From a bacterium (lineage in GTDB: Bacteria > Krumholzibacteriota > Krumholzibacteriia > G020349025): 12,339 bases of DNA. The notes below the pieces were generated by a model. The model did not search any database. It saw nothing but the letters and a program-made list of their open reading frames with translations, and was not told the origin of the DNA. The position numbers were made by a program, and so were the translations under genes. Shown here piece after piece: positions 1 through 12,339 of this stretch (positions are counted from its first letter, which is position 1; each line of letters opens with the position of its first letter). The stretch covers positions 1-12,339 of the forward strand of contig JANLSU010000133.1 of the NCBI GenBank assembly GCA_031362565.1. Reading direction: 5' to 3'.

Positions 1-63
1 TTACCTGGGGGCGGGTTATTTTTTTACACGGTGGGGGGGGGTGGGGGGTCCCCCCCCCCCCCC
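1..63. repeat. Low-complexity G, T and C homopolymer runs; probable read/contig-end artefact
   Basis: A T run at 19-25, two G runs within 30-48 and a C13 run at 51-63. Nothing similar occurs elsewhere in the window. It sits at the extreme end and translates to GGGGGSPPPP. Confidence 0.7.
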
Positions 64-153: not shown

Positions 154-2724
154 GTGCGCTGGTTTCTTCGTCTGGTGGGTTTCCTGCTGGTGGCGGGCGG
201 TTCATTCGCCGCGCTTGATCTGTTTTCGCCCGGCCTGAACCGCACGATTTCGCTCTTGGGACTCGGCCTGTTCTTCGCCAGTTTTGCCGGCGAATGGGCG
301 GGAACACGCCGGCCGGAACGCAACGCGCTCGTCGCCGGCGCACTCTGTTTGGTTCTAGCGGTGCCCATCGCCATTGCAGCGCCCGTCGGGATCGCGGCCT
401 TTCATCTCCTCGTGCTGGCCGGCGCGACGCTGTTGCTCGAACGCGCGCCGCGCGGCGTACGCGCCGAAATGCATGCCGCGCTCGCGGCGTTGGCGATCGT
501 CGTGTTTGGCGCCGAACTAAATCGCCTCTTGCCGCTCGTTTGGCACCTGCAACAGACACTGGCAGGATTGCTCTCGGATCTTTCCGCCCGCCTCGCACAT
601 GAACCGCGCAACCTGGGTCCCACCGCCATGGGCCTGCCGATCCTGGGCGCGCTGCTGGCGCTCGTCGTGGGGCGTGCGGCCGCCGGCCCCGACACAGGGA
701 AACCGCGCGCCATCGTCGGTGCCGGCGTGCTCGTAGCCGTGCACTTCGCGTACCTCGTCCTGCTGACACCCTACGCCGCATGGATGGGACGCCATCATCC
801 GACCCGCGAACATCTCGTGCTCAACTCGCAGTGGCTCTTCCTGCTCCTCGGCGCTCTGACCTTGACGTTGATGAATCACTGGAGTGCACGGCGGGCAAGA
901 GCGCGTGGGGTTGGCGGTGATTTGGCGCCGGGCGGTACGGAGCAGGCGCCATTCGCATGGCGACGAGTGGCGGCGGATTCGCGCCAAGTGACCGGCTTCT
1001 GCCTTGGGATCATGCTGATGCTGCTCTTCGGACGGCATGCGGCGCCGCCTGATGCGCCGGCGCACGTTCTGCTCTACGACGCCGGCTTCACGAACTGGGA
1101 TGTTCCCAACCATGAACGCTACGGCGAGCACAGCGCCGGGATGTTCGGGGTGCTGCCGGAACTGCTGCAGGCCGCCGGCCATCACGTCGAACGAAGCGCC
1201 GACCTCAGCCGCCTCGTGGCCCCCGAACCACCCGACTGCCTGGTACTCATCAACATCCAGAACTACCTCGAACCGGCGGACAAAGAGCGCATCTTGCGCT
1301 TCGTGCACAATGGTGGCGGACTGCTTTGCCTGGGTGATCACACCGGGGTTGCCGGCATTCGCGGTCCGTTCAACGATCTCTTGTCGGAGCTTGGCATCCG
1401 CCTGGCGTTCGACAGCGCGACGTTCTTCGCGAGCGGCTGGTCGAACGGGCTCGAACGCCGCAGCCACGCCGTGAATCAAGGTGTCGTCAACGACGAGGAC
1501 TACCAGATTTGGGTTGGCGCCTCGCTCGACATCGAACCAGCAGTCGCGCCGGTGGTCGTGGCGCGGTACGGGTGGTCGGATCTCGGCGAGATGGCGAATG
1601 TCGAGCGCGCCTATCTTGGCGACCGCCGCTACAACCCGAACGAACTCTTGGGCGATCTGGTGCTCGCGGCCGAGGCGCGTTATGGGCGCGGCAAGGTGCT
1701 GGTCTTCGGTGATACGTCCACCTATCAAAACCTGTCGTTGGCGCGGAGCAGTGTTTTCGTGCGGCGTTCCATTGCGCATCTGGCGCATCCGGGCGGCCAG
1801 CCCCCCGGCGCCGGCGTGCAGGTTCCGGCGCTCTTGCTACTGGCAGCGTTGCTTGGGCTGGCAACCGCCGGTGGTACATTCATGCTGCCGATTGGCGCCG
1901 CCTGTGCCGGGTTGCTCGCTGCGTCCACCGGCCTCGCCGTCCTCGATCGCACGCCGGCGCCCGCCGCGCTCGACTGGAAGCGGGTCGCACCTCTGTCGCT
2001 CACCGACGCGGCGCGCACCCAGCTTACCGGCACCGCAATCATCGATCGCTCGCACGGCGGGCGCTTCGACCTGCGAGCCTGGGACGATCAAAGTATCGGC
2101 GGGCTGACGCTCAATTTGATGCGTGATGGCCTCTTCCCGATCATCAGCGAGCGCTTCCCGGATCGCGAGCTCGACAAGGCGGATGCCGTCATTCTCCTCG
2201 CGCCGCAGGGTTCCTACGCGCCGGATGAGCGGCGCACGCTGCGCCGATTTATGGAGCGCGGCGGCAAACTGGTCGTCTGCGTGGGCGGCGAGGATCTGGA
2301 TGGGGCGCGTGAGCTGCTCGGCGACTATGGGCTCGGCGTGCGTCCGCTGCCGATGGCGCATTTCCGCACCGGCCCGGAAAAGACCGATCTTGCCTTCCTC
2401 GACGCGTGGTCGCTCGAGTGCCCGCCGCCGGCGCACATCCTCGTCCGCCAGTGGGGCGAGCCTATCGTCGCGAGCCTCGACGTCGGGCGCGGCCAGGTCA
2501 TCCTGATCGGTGACTCGCGCTTCCTGTTGGATCGCAATCTCGAGGGGCGCGAAAGTTGGTTCCCGGGCAACATCGCGTTGCTCGGCGCGCTCGTCCGCGG
2601 CCGGCCCGTGCAACCGGTCGAAGGCAAGTTCGAGGATCCGCGCCGGCAAGCGGTTCCGGCGGAGGCCGCCGCACTGGTGCATGGAGCAGACAGCACGAGT
2701 GGACGCGAGGTGAAGCGCCCGTGA
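154..2724 (+). CDS. Large multi-pass membrane protein with two DUF4350/GldG-like (class I GATase-fold) domains; paralog A
   Basis: Long ORF. The likely start is GTG154, 4 nt after GAGGAG (144-149); GTG121 is an alternative. About 9-10 hydrophobic segments come first. Soluble domain 1 contains LLYDAG, FVHNGGGLLCLGDHT and YGRGKVLVFGDTS. A hydrophobic hairpin follows, then domain 2 with IIDRSHG, FMERGGKLVV and VGRGQVILIGDS. These motifs match the DUF4350/ABC_transp_aux pattern as I recognise it. Confidence 0.8.
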   Translation: MRWFLRLVGFLLVAGGSFAALDLFSPGLNRTISLLGLGLFFASFAGEWAGTRRPERNALVAGALCLVLAVPIAIAAPVGIAAFHLLVLAGATLLLERAPRGVRAEMHAALAALAIVVFGAELNRLLPLVWHLQQTLAGLLSDLSARLAHEPRNLGPTAMGLPILGALLALVVGRAAAGPDTGKPRAIVGAGVLVAVHFAYLVLLTPYAAWMGRHHPTREHLVLNSQWLFLLLGALTLTLMNHWSARRARARGVGGDLAPGGTEQAPFAWRRVAADSRQVTGFCLGIMLMLLFGRHAAPPDAPAHVLLYDAGFTNWDVPNHERYGEHSAGMFGVLPELLQAAGHHVERSADLSRLVAPEPPDCLVLINIQNYLEPADKERILRFVHNGGGLLCLGDHTGVAGIRGPFNDLLSELGIRLAFDSATFFASGWSNGLERRSHAVNQGVVNDEDYQIWVGASLDIEPAVAPVVVARYGWSDLGEMANVERAYLGDRRYNPNELLGDLVLAAEARYGRGKVLVFGDTSTYQNLSLARSSVFVRRSIAHLAHPGGQPPGAGVQVPALLLLAALLGLATAGGTFMLPIGAACAGLLAASTGLAVLDRTPAPAALDWKRVAPLSLTDAARTQLTGTAIIDRSHGGRFDLRAWDDQSIGGLTLNLMRDGLFPIISERFPDRELDKADAVILLAPQGSYAPDERRTLRRFMERGGKLVVCVGGEDLDGARELLGDYGLGVRPLPMAHFRTGPEKTDLAFLDAWSLECPPPAHILVRQWGEPIVASLDVGRGQVILIGDSRFLLDRNLEGRESWFPGNIALLGALVRGRPVQPVEGKFEDPRRQAVPAEAAALVHGADSTSGREVKRP
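2707..2724 (+). promoter_or_regulatory. Ribosome-binding site and GTGA start/stop overlap coupling paralog A to paralog B
   Basis: GAGGTG at 2707-2712 lies 8 nt before GTG2721, which overlaps the TGA (2722-2724) of the upstream gene. Confidence 0.75.
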
Positions 2725-5336
2725 ATTCGCGCCACTCGATCCCCATACTCGGTGTCCTCTTCGACCGGCAAACCATGCTGCCAGCGTGGGCCGGGGCGCT
2801 TGTCCTGTCTTTTGCTTGGCTGCACGCTCTGTGGATCTATGCTCCCGCCGCCCAGGGTGTCGCGTGGTTTGCGACCGGCGTCGTACTCATGCTGGTAGGC
2901 TGTCGCGACGGTGTGATCGGACCACGGCGTCTACCGCGGTTCGAAAGCGTCTGCCTCGGCGCCGCGTCGGCCGTGGGCGTCGCGTTTCTGCCGCGCCCGT
3001 ACGACCTTGGACCGGCGCTCCTGCTGGCCTCGGCACTTTTGTCGTTGCTGCCGTGTCCGGCGTTGCTGCGGCGGATGCTCATCCCCGGGCTGTGGGTCGC
3101 GGGTCTCGTGCTGACACTGCAGGCGGCACTCGTGCCCGTGCTGTTCATTGTCGCCGCACGCCTGCACGATGCGCCGTTTTTGGCGCCCCTCGTGTATTAC
3201 CCGCTCAAGCTCGTCGCACCGGCGACCGTGCAGAGCGGCGCCACCCTGCAAATGCTGACTTCCGTCGATTGGATTCCGCTCACCCCGTCGTGGGAAAAGC
3301 TCGCGCTCGTGCCTGGAGCACTCATTGCCGCCGCCTTCACGACGCTTGTTCTCTTGCGGCGCGACGGTGTACGGCACCTGCCGGCCTTGGTGTTGCTCGG
3401 CCTGCTCTACGCCTGGCTGCGTCTGGTGATTCTCTTTCTTGTCGTCAGCCAGTTCCGCCGCCAACAGCTTTTCTGGGACCTGTCGGCACTTTGCGTAAGC
3501 TTCGTGCCGTGGGTGTTCATCGTCGCAGTCTGGCACCGCATGGCAACGGCGCGCGACAGTTCGAATGACGCGGGCGCTGCAACGGAACCCGAGGATGCGG
3601 CGCCGGCGGCGGGTGGCCGCCGCGTGGCTCTCGCTGCCGTTCTCTGTGTCGCCGGATTCACGTTCTTCTGGGGCTATCAAGACCCGGGCCGCGCCAAGCC
3701 TGGCCGCATTCTCATCGACGAAGGACACAGCGACTGGGAATGGACGACGGAAGCCTTCGACAAGGCCTGGTACGGCGGCAAATCCGGTTACAACTATTAC
3801 TGTTTAGCGGAGTACTGGAGCCATTTCTACACCGTCGAGACACGGCGCGAGCCGCTGACGCCGGCCCTGCTCGCCGCCTGGGACGTGCTCGTGATCAAGA
3901 CGCCGACGTCGGCGTATGGCCGGGCCGAAGTGGACGCCATCGCGGACTTCGTCAAGCGGGGCGGCGGCCTCTTCCTGGTCGGCGATCATACGAACGTCTT
4001 CGGCAGCGGCACCTACTTGAACGCCATCGCCGAGCGGTTCGGGCTCTATTTCCGTTACGACGCGACGTACCGGCTCGACAACCTCGATCTGAGCCTCTGG
4101 CAGCCGCCGGCGCTCTTGCCACATGCCGTCGTCCGCAACATGGGCGAATTCCTGTTCGCCACGTCGTGCAGCTTAGATTCGCCGCTCTTGTCGGAGAATG
4201 TCCTGCTCGGCTACGGACTACGCTCGATCTACTTGGACTATGCCGAGACGAGCTACTTCCCCGCCAAGAAGGGCGACAAGACGGACGATATGTACCCGTT
4301 GTTCGTGCAGTCGGGGGGCGTCCGGTTCGGACGGGGCCGCGTGCTCGGATTCACCGACAGCACCGTGTTCTCGAATTTCTTCATGTTCGTACCCGGCAAG
4401 CCGGAGCTGGCGTTGGGCTCGATCGAATGGCTGAACCGTATCAACGGACACGGCTGGGCTCTGCGCTTGTCGCTCGGGCTCGGAATCGCCGGCCTGTTGC
4501 TGTTGCTCTGGCAACTTGCCCGGGCGCCGCGCGTGCGGTACTTCGATGGCCTCGTGTCCGCCGGACTGCTGACGTTCGTCGTGGTCGCAGCCTGGTGTGA
4601 GCGCGGGGCGGCGCGTGACTATGCTCTGCCGCGGCCGGTCCGCAGCATCCAGGACGTGACGTTCGACGGCGAACATGGCTTCTTCGGGCTGCCGACGCGC
4701 AGCCTGCTGCCCGACCACTGGAGCAACATTCAAACCTTTTACGTGTGGATGCAGCGGCTTGGACTGGTGCCGCGCGTCGCACCGAACCTGCACGAGTACC
4801 TGCGGAGTCCCGGCCGCGTGCTCGTGGAACACAACTCGAACCGCGCCTACACGCTCGCGGAAGTCGACGGCATCGTCGATTTCGTGCGCCGCGGCGGCAT
4901 CCTTCTCGTCCTCGATACACCGCTCAATGGCGAATCGCAGTCCAACACCGTGCTCGGACCGTTTTCGATGTCGTTCGTGCCCGAGCGGCGCGACAGTCTG
5001 GCCGTGCTGCGACCGCCGGCGCCAGTCGGCGATTGGCTGTCAGGCCCGGTCCCCGGCGACTCGCTCGGCATCGCGGTCAAGGCGTTCGCTTTGACCGGCT
5101 CGAAGCCGCTCTTGACGTTGTCCGACGGCGCCGTGGTCATGGGCGAGCGTGATTTTGGCGCCGGCAAGGTCATCGCCTTCGGCGCCTCGCAACTGTTCAG
5201 CACGCCGGCAATGGGCAGCACCGCAATGATCCCGACGCCGCGCATGCGCGCGCTGTTTCAAGTTCAGTATGACCTCTTCGAAAACGTCGCCGGGATTCGC
5301 GTCACGTCGCGCTACACCGGCAAGAGCGTGCCCTGA
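2721..5336 (+). CDS. Large multi-pass membrane protein with a possible degenerate exosortase-like domain and two DUF4350/GldG-like domains; paralog B
   Basis: 871 aa from GTG2721. About 9-10 N-terminal hydrophobic segments. Domain 1 contains RILIDEGHSDWE, FVKRGGGLFLVGDHT and FGRGRVLGFTDSTVFSN. A two-helix hairpin follows, then domain 2 with TFDGEHG, FVRRGGILLVL and FGAGKVIAFGAS. The architecture matches the upstream gene. Confidence 0.85.
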   Translation: MNSRHSIPILGVLFDRQTMLPAWAGALVLSFAWLHALWIYAPAAQGVAWFATGVVLMLVGCRDGVIGPRRLPRFESVCLGAASAVGVAFLPRPYDLGPALLLASALLSLLPCPALLRRMLIPGLWVAGLVLTLQAALVPVLFIVAARLHDAPFLAPLVYYPLKLVAPATVQSGATLQMLTSVDWIPLTPSWEKLALVPGALIAAAFTTLVLLRRDGVRHLPALVLLGLLYAWLRLVILFLVVSQFRRQQLFWDLSALCVSFVPWVFIVAVWHRMATARDSSNDAGAATEPEDAAPAAGGRRVALAAVLCVAGFTFFWGYQDPGRAKPGRILIDEGHSDWEWTTEAFDKAWYGGKSGYNYYCLAEYWSHFYTVETRREPLTPALLAAWDVLVIKTPTSAYGRAEVDAIADFVKRGGGLFLVGDHTNVFGSGTYLNAIAERFGLYFRYDATYRLDNLDLSLWQPPALLPHAVVRNMGEFLFATSCSLDSPLLSENVLLGYGLRSIYLDYAETSYFPAKKGDKTDDMYPLFVQSGGVRFGRGRVLGFTDSTVFSNFFMFVPGKPELALGSIEWLNRINGHGWALRLSLGLGIAGLLLLLWQLARAPRVRYFDGLVSAGLLTFVVVAAWCERGAARDYALPRPVRSIQDVTFDGEHGFFGLPTRSLLPDHWSNIQTFYVWMQRLGLVPRVAPNLHEYLRSPGRVLVEHNSNRAYTLAEVDGIVDFVRRGGILLVLDTPLNGESQSNTVLGPFSMSFVPERRDSLAVLRPPAPVGDWLSGPVPGDSLGIAVKAFALTGSKPLLTLSDGAVVMGERDFGAGKVIAFGASQLFSTPAMGSTAMIPTPRMRALFQVQYDLFENVAGIRVTSRYTGKSVP

Positions 5337-5464: not shown

Positions 5465-6553
5465 GTGCTGACGATTTGCCCAACGGCCGACTACGAGATC
5501 TACCTCGGACGGAATCTGCTCCCACCAGAGCAGGTCCTGTTTCGGCCCACCGAAAAACTTCTGGCGCTCTGGGAGCAGGCCGGAATTCGCGGCACGCTGT
5601 TTCCCGATATTTGTTCCATTTGGCGCCACCGGGAACTCGGCCTCGAAGATTACGCTCAGGGCTGCGAGACTCAGCTCCGGGATGCGATTCGCCGTGGGCA
5701 CGAATTGCAATTGCACCTGCATCCCGAGTGGAAGACGGCGGTCCATGAATCCGGCCAATGGACTTTTCGGCCTGGCACGTCGTCCCTCAACGACTTGGGA
5801 TTCGAGGCGACCGACCCCGGCAGCGCACCGGCGCTCATCCGCAACGGCATGGCTTACTTGGCAGAACTGACTCGACCGCACGTCCCGGAATACCGTTGCA
5901 CGGCTTTTCGAGCCGGCGGGTGGGTCATTCAACCAGAGCGCGCCATTCTCGAGGCCTTGCGCGCTGCCGGGATTCGTGCGGACGCGACCGTGATACCGGG
6001 GGTTCGCTTGTTGCGAAAAGACTATCCGGTGGATTTTCGCTCCGTGCCGGAGGGCAATTGGCGGTTGGGACCTGCGGCCGGGCTCGCCGCCGACAGCGGC
6101 AACCCTGGCGATCTGGTCGAAGTACCGATCGCCGCGTTCCGCGGCGCGTTGCATCAATGGCAGCACGGCGTGAACAATCTGCGATTGCGGCGGCGGCGCG
6201 CCCAGCGACCGGAACCTTTCCGCGGCTACCCTATTGTGAAAGCGGGGCCACGGCCCGGAATCGCCGTCCGCTATGCCAATCTGTGGAGGAAGCTGTCCAT
6301 CCCGCGCATGTTCGACATCGCCGACACCTGCGAAGCGATGACTGCGATCCTCCAGAGCTACCTGTCGCGGCATGATTTCACCAGCGTCGATCTTGCGGTT
6401 TGCATGAACGGACATCCGAAGGATACGTACGATTTCCATTTCGACGAGAGCCGCCGCTTCTTCGATCACGTGTTGTCGAAACACGCCAAAGTGGTCCGAT
6501 TCCAGCCGCTGGGTGCGTGGGTTGCGGCGCATGCCGGCGGAGTTCCAAAATGA
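5465..6553 (+). CDS. Polysaccharide deacetylase-like protein (carbohydrate esterase 4 / NodB superfamily)
   Basis: GTG start with GGAGGG at 5451-5456. CE4-type motifs: TADYE (motif 1 variant), RGHELQLHLHPEW (metal-binding His), AFRAGGW and C-terminal GHPK. Confidence 0.85.
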   Translation: MLTICPTADYEIYLGRNLLPPEQVLFRPTEKLLALWEQAGIRGTLFPDICSIWRHRELGLEDYAQGCETQLRDAIRRGHELQLHLHPEWKTAVHESGQWTFRPGTSSLNDLGFEATDPGSAPALIRNGMAYLAELTRPHVPEYRCTAFRAGGWVIQPERAILEALRAAGIRADATVIPGVRLLRKDYPVDFRSVPEGNWRLGPAAGLAADSGNPGDLVEVPIAAFRGALHQWQHGVNNLRLRRRRAQRPEPFRGYPIVKAGPRPGIAVRYANLWRKLSIPRMFDIADTCEAMTAILQSYLSRHDFTSVDLAVCMNGHPKDTYDFHFDESRRFFDHVLSKHAKVVRFQPLGAWVAAHAGGVPK

Positions 6554-6637: not shown

Positions 6638-7381
6638 ATGCAGTTTACGGATCGCATCGTGCTCGTGACTGGGAGTTCTCGAGGGCTCGGTCGCGCGACC
6701 GCACTGGAGTTCGCACGCCAGGGTGCTCACGTCGCGGTGACCTACCGAAACTCGCGCGATCTCGCCGAAGGCGTCGCGGAGCAGATTCGCGGTTTCGGGC
6801 GCGAGGCACTGTGCATGCAGTTGGACACGGCGAGCATGGCGGACGTCGAGGGGCTCGTGAAATCGGTTCTCGAGCGCTGGGGACGTATCGACGTGCTGGT
6901 GAACAACGCGGGCATCCTGCGCGACCGGACGCTGCGCCGCATGACAGCAGAAGAGTGGAACGATGTTCTGTCGGTCAACCTGACCGGCGTATTCAACTGC
7001 TGTCACGCGGTCGTCGATCAGATGGTGGAACGCGGCTCCGGCCGCATCGTCAGCATCGCTTCCGTGATCGCCCACACGGGCGGTGTGGGGCAGACCAACT
7101 ACGCAGCCAGCAAGGCCGGAATCATCGGGTTTACCCGCTCGCTGGCATTGGAACTCGCCCCCAAGGGGATCACGGTCAATGCCGTGGCCCCGGGTTTCAT
7201 CAAGACCGACATGATCAAGACGATCCCCGACAGCGTTCTCGCACAGATTCGCGCCAAGATTCCGCTGGGCGATTTCGGCGCCCCCGAGGATATTGCGAAC
7301 GCGGTCACGTATCTGGCATCGGATGCGGCGCGTTATGTCACCGGACATGTACTCAACGTGAACGGCGGCTTCTGGCTGTAG
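6638..7381 (+). CDS. fabG: Short-chain dehydrogenase/reductase, 3-oxoacyl-ACP reductase (FabG) or acetoacetyl-CoA reductase (PhaB)-like
   Basis: ATG6638 with GGGAG at 6623-6627; 247 aa. Motifs: TGSSRGLG Rossmann, NNAG, catalytic YAASK, PGFIKTDM and C-terminal VNGG. The SDR call is firm; FabG versus PhaB is unresolved. Confidence 0.9.
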   Translation: MQFTDRIVLVTGSSRGLGRATALEFARQGAHVAVTYRNSRDLAEGVAEQIRGFGREALCMQLDTASMADVEGLVKSVLERWGRIDVLVNNAGILRDRTLRRMTAEEWNDVLSVNLTGVFNCCHAVVDQMVERGSGRIVSIASVIAHTGGVGQTNYAASKAGIIGFTRSLALELAPKGITVNAVAPGFIKTDMIKTIPDSVLAQIRAKIPLGDFGAPEDIANAVTYLASDAARYVTGHVLNVNGGFWL

Positions 7382-7401
7382 TGGGGGGCGCGGACCGCTC
7401 G

Positions 7402-8298
7402 ATGCGCGAACTGAAACGATACTTGCCGGCGCCGGTGCGCGAACTCCTGCGGCGGCTCCGGCGTAGCGCGCGCCGCCAGAGGATCGAATCCGGGCAACAC
7501 CATTCTCGGGCGGAGTTGGCCCAGCAGTTCGCGACGCTTGGAATCGCCGCCGGCGATACCGTGCTCGTGCACAGCGCCTTGTCCAAAATCGGGTATGTGG
7601 ACGGCGGTCCGCAGACGGTGATCGACGCGTTGTTCGACGCTGTCGGCACCCAGGGCACGGTCGCGTTCCCGACGTTTCCGTTCGACACCTACGTTGCCGA
7701 CTATCTCGTACGCAACCCGGATTTCGATGCGCTGCAAACACCGTCGCGCATGGGCTGGGTGACCGAGGTGTTCCGCACCCGCCCGGATGCCGTGCGGTCG
7801 CTGCATCCCACCCATCCCGTCGCCGCCGTCGGTCCGAACGCCCCGTATTTGACCGAAGCACACCATCTTGGGCCGACGACCTTCGGTCTCCAGAGTCCGT
7901 TCTTTCGCCTCGCCGAAACCGGTGGCAAGATTCTCCTGCTCGGCGTCGATTTTCATTCGATGACCAACCTGCACGTCGTCGAAGATACGTTGGACGACTT
8001 CCCGTATCGGGTCTATCGGCCCGACCCGGTGCGCACGACTCTGCGCGATTCAAACGGCACCGTTCATCTGCTGAGCGTTCGCGTTCACGATCCGGATCTG
8101 TCGCGCTTGCGGGACTGCAACCGCATGGAGAAGCCGTTCGCCGACCGCGGCGTGCTCCGGTTGGGCACGGTGGGCGCGGCCACGGCGAGGCTCATGACGG
8201 CCGACGGCGTCCTGGCAGCGATGCGCGAGCTGGCCCGAGCCGGCTTCACCATGTACGACGATCAACGGGTGCCGCACGAGTTCCGCCGCCGTCCCTAG
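7402..8298 (+). CDS. AAC(3)-family (Antibiotic_NAT, YokD/FrbF-like) N-acyltransferase
   Basis: ATG7402; 298 aa. Motifs: GIAAGDTVLVHSALSKIG, GTVAFPTF, PSRMGWVTE, RSLHPTHPV, GGKILLLGV and TNLHVVE (catalytic HxxE). Confidence 0.9.
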   Translation: MRELKRYLPAPVRELLRRLRRSARRQRIESGQHHSRAELAQQFATLGIAAGDTVLVHSALSKIGYVDGGPQTVIDALFDAVGTQGTVAFPTFPFDTYVADYLVRNPDFDALQTPSRMGWVTEVFRTRPDAVRSLHPTHPVAAVGPNAPYLTEAHHLGPTTFGLQSPFFRLAETGGKILLLGVDFHSMTNLHVVEDTLDDFPYRVYRPDPVRTTLRDSNGTVHLLSVRVHDPDLSRLRDCNRMEKPFADRGVLRLGTVGAATARLMTADGVLAAMRELARAGFTMYDDQRVPHEFRRRP

Positions 8299-8402: not shown

Positions 8403-10826
8403 ATGACCCACAGGACAGCCGCGGAGCCAGGGCTACGCCCACACTGGACTGCGCTGGTTGCGATTGGCCTGCTCGCCGGCGCGATCATGCTGTTCGAACT
8501 CGTCCTCACACGAATCTTCTCGTTCACGATCTGGCACCATTTCTCGTTCATGGTAATCAGCGTTGCGCTCATGGGGTTTGCGGTCAGCGGGATTGTCCTG
8601 CAACTCTATCCAGCGCTCGGCGTTCCAGCCCCGCAGCGCGCGGCGCATTACGCGGTGTTGTTCGCACTCACGGCGGTGCTCGCGGTGGCGCTCGTTACGC
8701 GCATCCCGTTCGACCCGACTCACATCGCCCAAGAGCCGGGACAGGTCGTGGCGCTCGCCGTGTACTACCTCACCTTGGTCGTGCCGTTCACATTCGCGGG
8801 GCTGGCGATCGTCTCGCTGCTGAACGGATACCCAGGCGACGTGAACCGGCTGTACGCCAGCGACCTGACGGGAGCCGGAGCCGGCTGCTTGATCGTCGTT
8901 GGCCTCATGGCGCATGTCGGTGCCGAGGGCGTGCTCCTGTTGGTGGGCGCCATTGCCTCAGTGAGCGCGTGGTTGTTGCGCTGCCGAACCCAAACGGGGC
9001 GGACACAACTGGCGCTTCCATGGTTGGCGGTCGCCGTGCTCTTCGGTGCCGCGACGCCATGGGCGACACACTTGCTGCCGATCCGGCCGGGAACCGGGAA
9101 GGGACTGACGTATTGGCTGAATCCCGCCAACTTTCCCCTCGCACGGCTGGCGTCGACCCAGTGGAATGCACTCTCGAGAGTCGACGTCGTCGAAGGTGCC
9201 GGGGCCGTCGAATGGACGGCGAATCCACGCTCGCCCGCCAGCTCCCCGCCGCAGACCCAAATCGTCATCGATGGCGATGCCGCGACGCCGATCATTCAGT
9301 CGAATGGCGACCTCCGGAGCCTCACCTTCCTCGACTACACCCTGTCGTCGACGGCGCTGCAGGCCTTTCGCCCTGCCCAGGTCCTGGTCATCGGTTCCGG
9401 GGGTGGTGTCGACGTGCTCACCGCGCTGCATCATGGGGCAGCGCATGTCGACGCAGTCGAAATCAACCCGATGATCGCCGGCCTCGTGACCCGACGCTAT
9501 GCGGAGTGGAACGGACATCTGTTCGAACGGCCCGAAGTGGCACTGCACCTCGGCGAAGGGCGCAACTTCGTGCGCCGGCAGACCACTCGGTACGACATGA
9601 TTCAGTTGTCGCTCATCGACACGTGGGCCGCGACCGCCGCCGGGGCCTACAGCCTCGCCGAAGGCTATCTGTACACGGTCGAGGCGTACCAGGACTACAT
9701 CGGGCACCTTGCCGGCGACGGTATTCTAACGGTCACGCGTTGGCGTTGGTCGCAGCCCCGGGAGATCTTGAAACTGTGCACGGTGGCCGTCGCGGCGTTG
9801 CGCGGGCTCGGGGTCGAGCACCCTGAAAAGCATCTGGTGATCGCGGCGCTGCCCGGACTCGCCAACGTCATGATCAAGCGCTCGGAGTTCACGGCCGCAG
9901 ATCTCGACTCGATCGAGAGGGTCGCGGACGCGCGTGGATTCGGGTTCCTGTACGCACCCGGCATCCGCGGCACCAACGAGTTCGTCCGCCTGCTGGACGC
10001 CCCGGATCCAAGCAAGTTCATCGACGCGTACCCGTTCGACATCCGTCCGGCCACCGATGACAGCCCATTCTTCTTCCAGTTCGGGCGCTGGCGCGATCTC
10101 TCACTCGCCGGGTGGCGCGAAAGCCCGCTCGCTCTCTCGGGGCGTCTCGTGCTGCTGGCGACACTGACCCAGGCGTTCTTGCTGTCGCTTGCTCTGTTGG
10201 TGGCCCCCATCATCAGGCGCGCCCGCAACACGCCGGCAATCCCGCGCGCGGCGGCCGGCGGAACGCTCGCGTACTTCGCCGCCATCGGCCTTGGATTCAT
10301 GCTGCTCGAGATCTCGTTGATGCAGCGATTCACGCTCTTTCTGGGGCACCCCGTGTATGCGATCGCCTTCGTCTTGGCGGTGCTCCTGATCGCCGCCGGC
10401 GCCGGAAGCATGTGCGCGCCGCGACTCGTGGGGTCTCGAAGCCGTCCGTGGTGGGTCTTCATCGGGATCGTCGGGATCGTGCTGCTGTATGCGGCTTGTA
10501 TGCCGGCGATCTTTCGTGCGGCGCTCGGGCTCGGATTGGTGAGCCGGCTCGCACTCGGCACGCTCCTTCTCTTTCCTTTGGGCTTCGGGCTCGGCATTCC
10601 TTTTCCGGCTGCGGTTGCATCACTGTCTCGGCGCACATCCGCACCTCTTCTGGGCTGGGCTTGGGCGGCCAATGGGGCCGCGTCGGTGATGGGGCCGATT
10701 CTGGCCGTGCTGCTGGCAATGGAGTTCGGCTTCACGGGCGTGATGTTCTTGGCGGCTCTGATCTACGCGGGCGCATTGCTGGCGTTTGGATCGTGGGAAG
10801 CGAAGGCCATGCACTCCAGGCCTTAG
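8403..10826 (+). CDS. Membrane-embedded spermidine-synthase-like / class I SAM-dependent transferase
   Basis: 807 aa. About 7 N-terminal TM helices (FELVLTRIFS, LYASDLTGAGAG). Central Rossmann SAM domain (IVIDGDA, VLVIGSGGGVDV, DAVEINP, EGRNFV, YDMIQLS, YLYTVEA, PATDDSPFFF). About 7 C-terminal TM helices (GLGFMLLEISLMQRF, WAWAANGAASV). Confidence 0.85.
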   Translation: MTHRTAAEPGLRPHWTALVAIGLLAGAIMLFELVLTRIFSFTIWHHFSFMVISVALMGFAVSGIVLQLYPALGVPAPQRAAHYAVLFALTAVLAVALVTRIPFDPTHIAQEPGQVVALAVYYLTLVVPFTFAGLAIVSLLNGYPGDVNRLYASDLTGAGAGCLIVVGLMAHVGAEGVLLLVGAIASVSAWLLRCRTQTGRTQLALPWLAVAVLFGAATPWATHLLPIRPGTGKGLTYWLNPANFPLARLASTQWNALSRVDVVEGAGAVEWTANPRSPASSPPQTQIVIDGDAATPIIQSNGDLRSLTFLDYTLSSTALQAFRPAQVLVIGSGGGVDVLTALHHGAAHVDAVEINPMIAGLVTRRYAEWNGHLFERPEVALHLGEGRNFVRRQTTRYDMIQLSLIDTWAATAAGAYSLAEGYLYTVEAYQDYIGHLAGDGILTVTRWRWSQPREILKLCTVAVAALRGLGVEHPEKHLVIAALPGLANVMIKRSEFTAADLDSIERVADARGFGFLYAPGIRGTNEFVRLLDAPDPSKFIDAYPFDIRPATDDSPFFFQFGRWRDLSLAGWRESPLALSGRLVLLATLTQAFLLSLALLVAPIIRRARNTPAIPRAAAGGTLAYFAAIGLGFMLLEISLMQRFTLFLGHPVYAIAFVLAVLLIAAGAGSMCAPRLVGSRSRPWWVFIGIVGIVLLYAACMPAIFRAALGLGLVSRLALGTLLLFPLGFGLGIPFPAAVASLSRRTSAPLLGWAWAANGAASVMGPILAVLLAMEFGFTGVMFLAALIYAGALLAFGSWEAKAMHSRP

Positions 10827-10869
10827 AATCGGTGCGCTGCACCGGTCGCGTCCCGGCGTTTGATTTGTG

Positions 10870-10898
10870 TTGCAAAGTACTCTACCGAACATTATTAT
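10870..10898 (+). promoter_or_regulatory. Sigma70-type promoter for the radical SAM gene
   Basis: TTGCAA (10870-10875), 17 nt spacer, TATTAT (10893-10898), in an AT-rich intergenic patch. AGGAGG follows at 10927-10932. Confidence 0.65.
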
Positions 10899-10962
10899 GC
10901 GCGGACGGCGGCCCGGAATTCGGACCAGGAGGCCCTTGCGACACCGGACACTCCCCCAGGCC

Positions 10963-12339
10963 ATGCGCGTCCCGCCGCGCCTGGATGCGGCCTTCCAGCC
11001 GCGGCGCGTCGAGCCACGTCACGCCCTGCTCGTGAACCCGTTCTACGCCAAGGATCCACATGCCAGCTTCGGCAAACATGTCCTGACGCCGACTCTCGCG
11101 CTCACCAGCATTGCGGCCGCGACGCCGCCACATTGGACGGTGCGGGTTTGGGACGAGAATCTGCTGCAAGGTTCGCCCCCAGCAGAGCCGTTTCCGCAGG
11201 TGGTCGGCATCAGCGTCCATCTCACGTTCGCGCAACGGGCCTTCGATCTGGCCCGTTGGTATCGTGACCGCGGCGCGATTGTCGTCTTGGGCGGCCTGCA
11301 TGTGCTGTCCTGCCCCGAGGAATGTGCGCCGCATGCCGATGTGCTGGTGCTCGGCGAAGGCACGCGCCCGTGGGCGCAACTCCTGCACGACCTCGAAGCG
11401 GGCCGGCTCGAGACGCGTTACGTGGGGAGCTACCGCGAGCCCTACGCGGATGAACCGGCGCCACGCCGCGATCTCCTGCCGCGCGCGCAATACCTGACCA
11501 CCGCCAGCATGATCGCGACGCGCGGCTGCCACAACCGATGCGGATTCTGCTATTTGTCGACCGATGACCTGCATATGCCGTATCACATGAAACCGGTCGA
11601 GCAAGTCGTCGATGAACTGGTGGCAGACGGCCAGCCCTACGTGGTCTTTGTCGACAACAACCTGGGATCGCGGCCGGACTACCTGCGCTCGCTGTGCCGC
11701 GCATTGCGCCCGCTCGGGATCATCTGGAGCGCGGCCGTTTCCATCGACGTGACCGATGATCCCTCGCTGGCGCAGGAAATGGCGCTCGCTGGGTGTACCG
11801 GAGTTTTCGTCGGCTTCGAGTCGCTACAACCGGAAAACATCGTCGAGGCGCGCAAGAAGAGCCCACGGCCCTCCGACTATGCGCGGCGCGTGTCCCTTCT
11901 CCATGACCACGGCATTCAAGTCAACGGCAGCTTCGTGCTGGGCTTCGACCACGATGGGCCGGATGTCTTCGAGCGCACCACGCAATGGATCGAGGACAAC
12001 CGGCTCGAGTGCGCGACGTTTCACATCCTGACGCCCTATCCCGGTACGCCGCTCTTCCATCAAATGGAGCGCGAGGGCAGGCTTCTACATCGGGACTGGT
12101 CGCGTTACGACACTGCCAACGTCGTCTTCCGGCCGCGGCGCATGACGGCGGATGAGCTCGCGAACGGCTATGCGTGGTGCTACGAACGGCTGTTTTCCCA
12201 TGCATCGATCTGGCGCCGGCGGCCCGCCGACGCCAAGGCGGTGGCGCCGTATCTCGCGATGTCCTACCTCTACAAGCGATCGAACGCGATTTGGTATTTC
12301 CTGATCCGCTACCGGTTGACGGCGGCGGTTCGGTCTGTG
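10963..12339 (+). CDS. B12-binding domain radical SAM protein, 3'-truncated by the window end
   Basis: Manual translation of frame +1 is open to the window end: MRVPPRLD...LLVNPFYAKDPHASFGKHVLTPTLAL...VWDEN...VVLGGLHV...GEG (cobalamin-binding domain). TRGCHNRCGFC gives CxxxCxxC at 11527-11550. Then FVDNN, VFVGFES, GSFVLGFD and LTPYPGTPL. In-frame TTG10936 just after AGGAGG is an alternative start. Confidence 0.92.
   Translation, partial: MRVPPRLDAAFQPRRVEPRHALLVNPFYAKDPHASFGKHVLTPTLALTSIAAATPPHWTVRVWDENLLQGSPPAEPFPQVVGISVHLTFAQRAFDLARWYRDRGAIVVLGGLHVLSCPEECAPHADVLVLGEGTRPWAQLLHDLEAGRLETRYVGSYREPYADEPAPRRDLLPRAQYLTTASMIATRGCHNRCGFCYLSTDDLHMPYHMKPVEQVVDELVADGQPYVVFVDNNLGSRPDYLRSLCRALRPLGIIWSAAVSIDVTDDPSLAQEMALAGCTGVFVGFESLQPENIVEARKKSPRPSDYARRVSLLHDHGIQVNGSFVLGFDHDGPDVFERTTQWIEDNRLECATFHILTPYPGTPLFHQMEREGRLLHRDWSRYDTANVVFRPRRMTADELANGYAWCYERLFSHASIWRRRPADAKAVAPYLAMSYLYKRSNAIWYFLIRYRLTAAVRSV

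Follow-up and report, generated by a model that had tools for sequence, protein, structure and literature searches.

A putative exosortase-like membrane domain without its catalytic cysteine, fused to GIFT-type ectodomains in a Krumholzibacteriota bacterium

The window analysed here, a stretch of 12,339 bp with about 65% G+C from contig JANLSU010000133.1 of a Krumholzibacteriota bacterium (GCA_031362565.1), carries at its start two large co-directional genes, which we term paralogs A and B. Paralog A (154..2724, forward strand) encodes 856 amino acids (aa) as called in P0161, with an in-frame GTG at position 31 as an alternative start; paralog B (2721..5336, forward strand) encodes 871 aa, and the public gene call P0003 is identical. 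The GTG start of B and the TGA stop of A share a GTGA overlap (2721..2724, forward strand) that can be read directly from the sequence and agrees with the start of P0003, and we take this overlap as translational coupling of the two genes. In paralog A, a multi-pass N-terminal membrane domain is joined to two DUF4350/GIFT-like domains with two transmembrane (TM) helices between them, while paralog B consists of an N-terminal membrane domain of about nine helices, a GIFT/DUF4350 domain, two TM helices and a second GIFT-like domain. Our subject is the membrane domain of B, for which an earlier reading of the letters (the original prediction) had proposed an exosortase- or archaeosortase-like domain that lacks its catalytic cysteine.

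The part of this domain that we modelled comprises residues 1-300 (2721..3620; all features of B lie on the forward strand), and within it profile-profile alignment delimits an exosortase-like core of one TM helix, a short helix, a beta loop and three TM helices (residues 121-273; 3081..3539). The letters on which the original prediction relied, at 3117-3530 of the forward strand, are exact on translation and correspond to residues 133-270 of B; the WEKL tetrapeptide and the arginine codon that it singled out are W191-E192-K193-L194 (3291..3302), also located by the profile alignments, and R234 (3420-3422). Ahead of WEKL lie an R147-x-H149 motif where helix 114-147 reaches its outer end (3159..3167, with H149 at nucleotides 3165-3167) and a beta-rich loop (residues 166-190; 3216..3290), which forms strands in our model and would be placed at the outer face by the topology discussed below. 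Behind it, Y230 and R234 lie in helix 217-245 (3408..3422), followed by F251-W252 (3471..3476), which the alignment with exosortase H brings out. A further TM helix (residues 302-320 by hydropathy; 3624..3680), seen as helix 296-319 in a single-sequence model, leads to the first ectodomain.

A search of B residues 1-320 against 1.84 billion representatives, with a family cut-off of E ≤ 0.001, retrieved 69 proteins (clusters at 50% identity), eight of them at E ≤ 1e-10 and most of them 800-920 aa in length. We compared this family by hhalign with three exosortase profiles: exosortase H (87 proteins gathered with the genome's own exosortase H-like protein as query), an XrtA-type profile (28 proteins, obtained by translating the PF09721 matches of related genomes), and a merged profile of all 115 sequences. 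Against exosortase H, the B family aligned over 117 columns (B 153-273 on 61-182) with a probability of 56.3% (P 1.1e-4, score 37.0), and in a second run over 119 columns with 51.7% (P 1.5e-4, score 41.1); restricting the family to the core of B gave 71.5% (P 3.6e-5, score 36.5, 117 columns). The merged profile was matched over 146 columns (B 121-273) with 70.1% (P 4e-5, score 43.6), and the XrtA-type profile over 68 columns (B 141-214) with 16.5% (P 1.5e-3, score 31.0); exosortase H against XrtA, our positive control, reached 96.6% (P 5.9e-10, score 69.0, 145 columns). The real scores exceed those of all 90 block shuffles and of both reversed profiles. Against exosortase H, the reversed profile scored 12.1 and 40 shuffles of 10-column blocks averaged 16.95 (standard deviation 2.4, maximum 23.6); against the merged profile, the reversed profile scored 17.1, 25 shuffles of 10-column blocks averaged 15.0 (maximum 24.2), and 25 shuffles of 20-column blocks averaged 24.2 (standard deviation 4.2, maximum 37.6). 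As the exosortase comparison had been named in advance, no correction for multiple testing was needed.

All these comparisons adopt a single register, on which the three differently built profiles agree. The loop of B aligns to the G..v...G..l loop of exosortases. K193 falls on the exosortase Cys (C97, invariant in the exosortase H alignment), E192 on the Glu that precedes this Cys in exosortase H, and L194-G195 on the S-G of the XrtA C-S-G motif, so that WEKL does occupy the position of the catalytic motif that had been assigned to it. Wherever the alignment reaches that far, R234 falls on R138, invariant across the 87 exosortase H sequences, and the 41 residues from K193 to R234 match the Cys-Arg spacing of the two short exosortases that this genome encodes, the alignment being ungapped there; the Arg is preserved, as had been anticipated. 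W252 meets W161, which is near-invariant in exosortase H and lies four residues past its His, and this histidine, H157, meets the Q248 column, which is variable in the B family. A preprint (bioRxiv 10.1101/2023.06.07.544157) gives the exosortase triad as Cys-Arg-His.

The significance of this similarity is moderate and not decisive, and homology to exosortases is what we infer from these moderate statistics. Several observations weigh against it. The hhalign probabilities of 52-71% are well below 90%, and with the XrtA-type comparison they span 16-71%, below the level usually regarded as safe; one of the 20-column block shuffles scored 37.6 against the real 43.6. Only one residue of the triad, the Arg, is kept in the B family, and G127, invariant in exosortase H, is Leu or Phe there. 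No Pfam and no NCBIfam family matched B residues 1-320 at E ≤ 10, PF09721 and TIGR04178 included, and the 25 Pfam families listed, out of 60 that the 71 members of the family alignment matched, do not include PF09721. The genome's three real exosortases match many NCBIfam exosortase models, unlike B. When a hidden Markov model (HMM) of the B domain was run over the 29,068 open reading frames (ORFs) of at least 100 aa in this genome, an exosortase H-like ORF ranked third, with a non-significant E of 1; conversely, B was not among the top 14 matches of an exosortase H HMM in the genome. Measured by curated models, B would not be classed as an exosortase.

These observations lend themselves to a different explanation, namely that the B domain is a new nine-helix membrane fold unrelated to exosortases, its resemblance to them reflecting convergence or hydrophobic composition and its matching Arg and Trp being a product of chance. 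Beyond the missing curated matches, the HMM-to-sequence E of 1 and the loss of Cys, His and the invariant Gly, this explanation can draw on structure comparisons by Foldseek and VIA-align, in which our model of B gave generic helical matches among solved structures and no meaningful fold. It has to account for a pre-specified comparison that outscored every shuffle and both reversals, for three profiles that fall into one register, and for the fact that R234 and W252, the two best-conserved polar or aromatic columns of the B family, land on R138 and W161 with an identical spacing of 41 residues. An independent feature search also speaks against it: with B 1-295 as query, the three first entries in the ESM Atlas were exosortase/archaeosortase clusters (0.87, 0.87 and 0.86; 193-195 of the 256 features in common). 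Scores below 0.9 in this search are leads only, which tempers its value, and paralog A drew exosortase clusters as well (0.82 and 0.81, with an unnamed cluster ranking ahead of them at 0.83); as A has no profile match to exosortases, the feature search may be unspecific. On balance, we regard an unrelated fold as rather improbable, although it deserves to be taken seriously. The original claim of an exosortase-like domain without catalytic Cys stands in part: the profile similarity occurs in the predicted register and the Cys is absent, but the statistics are moderate and no curated model concurs.

A MAFFT alignment of 71 rows (B, the 69 matches at E ≤ 0.001 and P0004), from which the following counts are taken with non-gap denominators, delineates the conserved residues. 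The R234 column is Arg in 60 of 62 sequences, and the W252 column (57/60), the F251 column (51/60), the Y230 column (53/63), the H149 column (60/70) and the R147 column (49/70) are likewise strongly kept. Within the tetrapeptide, column 192 holds 51 Glu and nine Asp among 66 sequences, and column 193 is weaker (41 Lys, 6 Ala, 4 His, 4 Ser, 4 Arg and 7 others, of 66); W191 is found in 38/66, L194 in 51/66 and G195 in 54/65, B itself having Ala there. Conserved loop columns are G166 (Gly in 55/69), T180 (43 of all 71 rows) and T/S190 (58 of all 71 rows). In the 59 members that possess all key columns, R234 is present in 58, E/D192 in 54, H149 in 49 and K193 in 37. The expectation that the WEKL and Arg columns would be conserved among homologs was therefore borne out, with the Glu (E/D192 in 60/66) much better kept than the Lys.

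None of the columns of residues 1-299 contains eight or more Cys among the 71 rows, and none after R234 contains eight or more His, except linker position 292 (8/55). As the column aligned with the catalytic Cys is the least conserved of the motif, no replacement nucleophile is to be expected there and thioacyl chemistry is excluded; with the Cys lost, B can perform neither cysteine-protease nor transpeptidase chemistry. The proposal that no His follows the Arg holds for conserved residues, but it overlooked a conserved His, H149, upstream of the loop. An Asn ahead of the Arg, as in the N..R helix of exosortases, is absent, and a Tyr (Y230) stands four residues before R234 instead. The view of the B domain as a pseudo-sortase needs similar qualification: Cys and His are gone, but the conservation of E192, H149 and R234, together with their joint loss in a single relative described below, argues that the site still functions and is not a decayed relic.

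AlphaFold2, run on B residues 1-300 with the 71-row alignment, gave a model (m594794c62522) with a mean predicted local distance difference test (pLDDT) of 91.1 and a predicted TM-score (pTM) of 0.88; a single-sequence model (pLDDT 49) was of no use. The model contains helices 20-36, 43-60, 73-89, 96-109, 114-147 and 154-165 ahead of the beta loop, strands 170-172, 175-179 and 184-187 just before WEKL, and helices 196-211, 217-245, 248-251 and 254-286 after it. The guess of a short beta-rich loop followed by helices is thereby confirmed by the model. Arg/Lys-rich loops are found in B at 61-72, around 117-118, and at 213-219, 287-301 and 597-604. If these are placed inside, the outer membrane face receives the beta loop, H149, E192/K193 and F251/W252; R234 and Y230 then fall within the outer half of helix 217-245, and both GIFT domains lie outside. 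The conserved polar residues of B would then lie at one level, fitting a single site, and E192, R234, H149/R147, Y230 and W252 would form a conserved polar site at the outer face of the inner membrane, to which a ligand or client may be ascribed. The PDB contains no exosortase relative with which to compare this fold (a phmmer search with a real exosortase gave no match at E ≤ 1), which also limits the support for our assignment. To our knowledge, every exosortase or archaeosortase described so far is a cysteine enzyme, and none has a solved structure.

Both ectodomains of A and of B belong with GldG, ABC_transp_aux (PF09822), DUF4350 (PF14258, arCOG01314) and the GIFT domain of IFT52. The first of B (residues 370-554; 3828..4382) is recognised by PF14258 (E 1.1e-14; 55.5 bits, cut-off 30.4), PF23355 (E 1.3e-8; 34.7 bits, cut-off 27.2) and PF09822 (E 1.1e-7), and A matches PF14258 (E 5.8e-19; 69.5 bits) and PF09822 (41.4 bits, cut-off 34.7), so that both proteins pass the cut-offs of the family HMMs. 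Two TM helices, identified by hydropathy (residues 578-623; 4452..4589), separate it from the second domain of B (residues ~640-871; 4638..5333), which is supported by a match of family profile positions 665-792 to the IFT52 GIFT domain 5fmr_A (E 6e-9). Among the 71 family members, 48-49 possess GIFT/DUF4350 domains, the remainder being short fragments. Ten clusters of the family were checked for names; five carried one, either 'hypothetical protein' or 'flavodoxin', and one of these five is from a Thermoplasmatota archaeon. According to Makarova et al. 2015 (PMC5898192), GIFT is a fold tied to GldG, OST48 and IFT52, and DUF4350 proteins are predicted to be part of a secretion or membrane-remodelling complex. 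The ectodomains of A and B, as judged from these matches, are ordinary members of this group. Their setting differs: known DUF4350/GldG members either combine a signal peptide with a single C-terminal TM helix or lie beside an ABC-2 transporter, whereas here two such domains sit on a sortase-like multi-pass domain, with no ABC, MoxR or DUF58 gene nearby.

In BLASTP, A and B align only in the C-terminal GIFT-type part (26% identity over 268 residues, E 6e-11); their second domains have weak mutual similarity, and their N-terminal membrane domains do not align. The membrane domain of A gained no support as a second sortase-like domain: with eight A sequences, hhalign gave a P of 0.0062 against B that involved the linker only, and the comparisons with exosortase H (P 0.017) and XrtA (P 0.097) were not significant. 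The N-terminal domain of A (154..1083) has a conserved motif of its own, (E/D)RNLGPTAMG(L/I)P, ahead of a TM helix and at roughly the same place as TWEKLG(L)xP in B.

A six-frame scan of the genome with PF09721 located three exosortase loci, all on other contigs and none in the window. One encodes a fusion of an XrtD-like enzyme with EpsI, and the other two encode short proteins of the exosortase H-like type. With exosortase H (XrtH, TIGR04177) and the exosortase/archaeosortase family at large (PF09721, TIGR04178), B shares a TM helix, a Gly-rich beta loop and a motif that opens a TM helix, followed 41 residues on by an Arg-bearing helix and then by a Trp-bearing segment, with the site at the outer face of the inner membrane under the topology given above. 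It departs from them in that the Cys is replaced by a variable Lys and the His is absent, with a conserved Glu192 and the upstream R-x-H motif instead, in four extra N-terminal helices, in two GIFT/DUF4350 ectodomains, in its length (871 aa versus 160-300 aa), in being always paired with a paralog, and in that no tripartite sorting signal tracks it. Among seven features that mark exosortase membership, B displays the Arg and the profile similarity; a match to a curated HMM, the Cys, the His (near-invariant, some 19-22 residues after the Arg) and a sorting signal are absent, and because four of the seven fail, we do not file B as an exosortase. For the seventh feature, a common three-dimensional fold, there is a confident model of B and no exosortase relative in the PDB.

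Membrane proteins without the Cys also occur next to the genome's own exosortases. Both exosortase H-like genes are directly followed by a Cys-less membrane protein of 176-207 aa, encoded at 1958-2488 (+) of locus L002 on contig C46 and at 909-1532 (-) of locus L003 on contig C36. These two proteins have no NCBIfam name, and hhalign relates them to exosortase H (P 2.5e-4 and 4.7e-4) and to the merged profile (P 2.1e-5 and 6.7e-3). An exosortase H-like gene and its Cys-less follower may constitute a pair of enzyme and pseudo-enzyme, and by these sequence comparisons the two proteins are a precedent in this genome for Cys-less exosortase-like proteins. Unlike B, they have no ectodomains and adjoin an active-looking exosortase, and they have no detectable similarity to the B family (probability 0.2%). 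Inactive rhomboid-fold proteins, the iRhoms and Derlins, offer a parallel of concept only, their fold being unrelated to that of B: in them, an intramembrane protease fold without its nucleophile serves client recognition. Literature searches of limited coverage turned up no account of a Cys-less exosortase fused to GIFT domains.

All four relatives that were identified first retain the tandem of A and B. Scanning 61 related genomes with the family profile for matches that cover the N-terminal domain of B revealed a B-type protein in six (G000, G034, G054, G043, G036 and G039), each with an A-type gene just upstream, and a scan of species-representative genomes added two further pairs, L060 in an Eiseniibacteriota record and L061 in a Gemmatimonadota record. 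A separate B-type gene of 695 aa, at 7599-9683 of L063 (CP070631.1), matches B only over residues 152-617 and has no A upstream; this copy is truncated or remodelled, and its locus consists partly of masked letters. Two of the four B-bearing relatives sampled, G043 and G036, have no PF09721 match, and B therefore does not depend on a canonical exosortase.

In all eight genomes with the pair, a Cys-rich (5-12% Cys), repeat-rich secreted protein adjoins A-B; the neighbours tested belong to no Pfam or NCBIfam family. Its gene precedes the pair, in the same orientation, in G034, G054, G043, G039, L060 and L061 and is divergent in G036. In the genome of the window, the Cys-rich homologue belongs to contig C32, which ends 92 bp away from it, and both this end (C32:67673-67764) and the beginning of the window (1-60) run into long poly-G/poly-C tracts; the two contigs are probably adjacent, the assembly having broken between the Cys-rich gene and paralog A. 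In L061, two tandem Cys-rich copies with the tail described next (1880-2650 and 3009-3785) precede A-B. Six of the Cys-rich neighbours end in a strict ...[ST]WG.[IVL]K..[YF]..., 0-4 residues from the stop, and that of L060 in a near variant of this WG tail, TTWGQLKTLHMRE, so that a WG-type tail, in these cases without a TM helix, is present on the neighbour in seven of the eight genomes. The eighth is G039 (L058, G039:C47; 4956-6206 and 9031-11667), whose neighbour ends in an IPTIRTAG motif, a hydrophobic stretch and RRRR, a tail that, from the letters only, we would call IPTLxxWG-like. NCBIfam sorting-signal models matched none of the neighbours' tails, that of G039 included. It is this same G039 whose B copy, alone among the nine copies compared, has lost R147, H149, E192, K193 and R234 together; the coincidence of residue loss with a different neighbour tail is suggestive, although these relatives offer just one such contrast.

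Other proteins bear the WG tail as well. In the genome from which the window comes, its core, WG.[ILVM][KR]..[YFW], occurs 50 times in ORFs of at least 80 aa, 41 of the 50 within four residues of the C-terminus, and it is covered by no Pfam or NCBIfam model. The proteins that carry it are secreted and unrelated to one another (beta-helix, trypsin-like, ice-binding-like, NHL, fn3 and BNR). Forty-one ORFs end in [ST]WG.[VI]K.[LM][YF]R, 0-4 residues from the stop, for instance C11:32170-32934, C14:33557-34408 and C32:66422-67672 (loci L042-L057). Searched with a strict DNA pattern that includes the stop codon, the tail is present in 53 of the 61 related genomes, and a reversed-pattern control gave no match in any of them. 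We discarded the idea that B is the general sorting enzyme of this tail, which is found in 53/61 genomes when B is found in 6/61; G007, G012, G014 and G019, for example, have 21-24 tails each and no B. An association of the tail with exosortases was likewise rejected: in family f2, PF09721 was matched in 0/20 genomes, and the tail was present in all 11 f2 genomes sampled. The PEP-CTERM-like sorting signals that had been suggested as worth looking for in this genome amounted to two matches, both on contigs other than that of B; a regular expression for IPTLxxWG-type tails gave two matches in this genome, neither with a TM helix, and a cognate tripartite C-terminal signal (motif, TM helix and Arg cluster) that co-occurs with B was not found.

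Should the B domain indeed be derived from exosortases, it might still be an enzyme, with a Cys-independent Glu192/His149/Arg234 site that cleaves or transfers the tail of its neighbour. The degree to which these three residues are kept (E/D192 in 54/59, H149 in 49/59 and R234 in 58/59, versus 37/59 for K193) would suit such a function, and so would their joint loss in G039, whose neighbour carries a tail of motif, TM helix and RRRR, and the tail-bearing Cys-rich secreted protein beside A-B in 7/8 genomes; moreover, glutamic-type intramembrane sorting proteases exist, as bioRxiv 10.1101/2023.06.07.544157 indicates. To set against this, no known exosortase relative acts in this manner, the WG tail has no TM helix with which to reach an intramembrane site, and the distribution of the tail (53/61 genomes) relative to that of B (6/61) means that B has no part in the handling of most tails. 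The contrast seen in G039 comes from one case among kin, and that E192, H149 and R234 are close to each other in space is an assumption. We therefore consider an enzymatic role unlikely. A bolder version, in which B would be the first exosortase-fold protein with Glu-His-Arg in place of Cys-Arg-His and would, together with A, read or process the neighbour's 'TWGxVKxLYR-end' tail, is a long shot in our estimation. It would fit with the tail on the neighbour in seven of eight genomes and with G039, where the copy without the five polar residues adjoins a tail that contains a TM helix.

Further downstream, the window encodes a 362-aa protein of no known family (5465-6553), a protein with an AAC(3)-type N-acetyltransferase domain (6811-8298; PF02522, E 4.7e-57) whose ORF has about 200 extra arginine-rich N-terminal codons, the real start probably lying near 7405, a membrane protein of 807 aa whose domain resembles spermidine synthase (8403-10826), and a B12-binding radical SAM protein (10867-12339). 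A role for these genes in the A-B system was rejected, as they have no counterpart beside A-B in any of the four relatives' loci.

Taken together, the data lead us to a reading to which we give about an even chance of being correct, namely that the B domain is related, at great divergence, to the exosortase/archaeosortase fold, without Cys and His, and has a docking role. In such a scenario, the core of B would keep the TM helix, the outer-face beta loop, the three TM helices and the Arg, the Cys and His having been lost, and its conserved site is predicted to dock a partner and not to cut it. B and the translationally coupled A would act jointly as an inner-membrane platform. In its sortase-like groove, B would accommodate either part of the Cys-rich neighbour or a lipid-linked acceptor, and the four outward GldG/GIFT-like domains of A and B would bind an envelope polymer or glycan. 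When the membrane domain of B was modelled in complex with the neighbour in its mature form, the outcome (score 0.00, mark 0.32, with the partner's own fold uncertain) spoke neither for nor against such docking.

If our reading of B is correct, a widespread family would represent an exosortase fold reused without its nucleophile, with the core and the Arg kept and with GldG/GIFT domains fused to it. Membrane proteins with paired GIFT domains would thereby gain a first mechanistic handle, a sortase-like groove that opens toward the periplasm, and the Cys-rich neighbour would become a concrete candidate client of the A-B pair. Were B and A in addition to read or process the neighbour's C-terminus, the orphan 'TWGxVKxLYR-end' tag would obtain its first candidate partner. 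B would also link two poorly understood themes, the DUF4350 'membrane remodelling' modules and the sortase-like enzymes.

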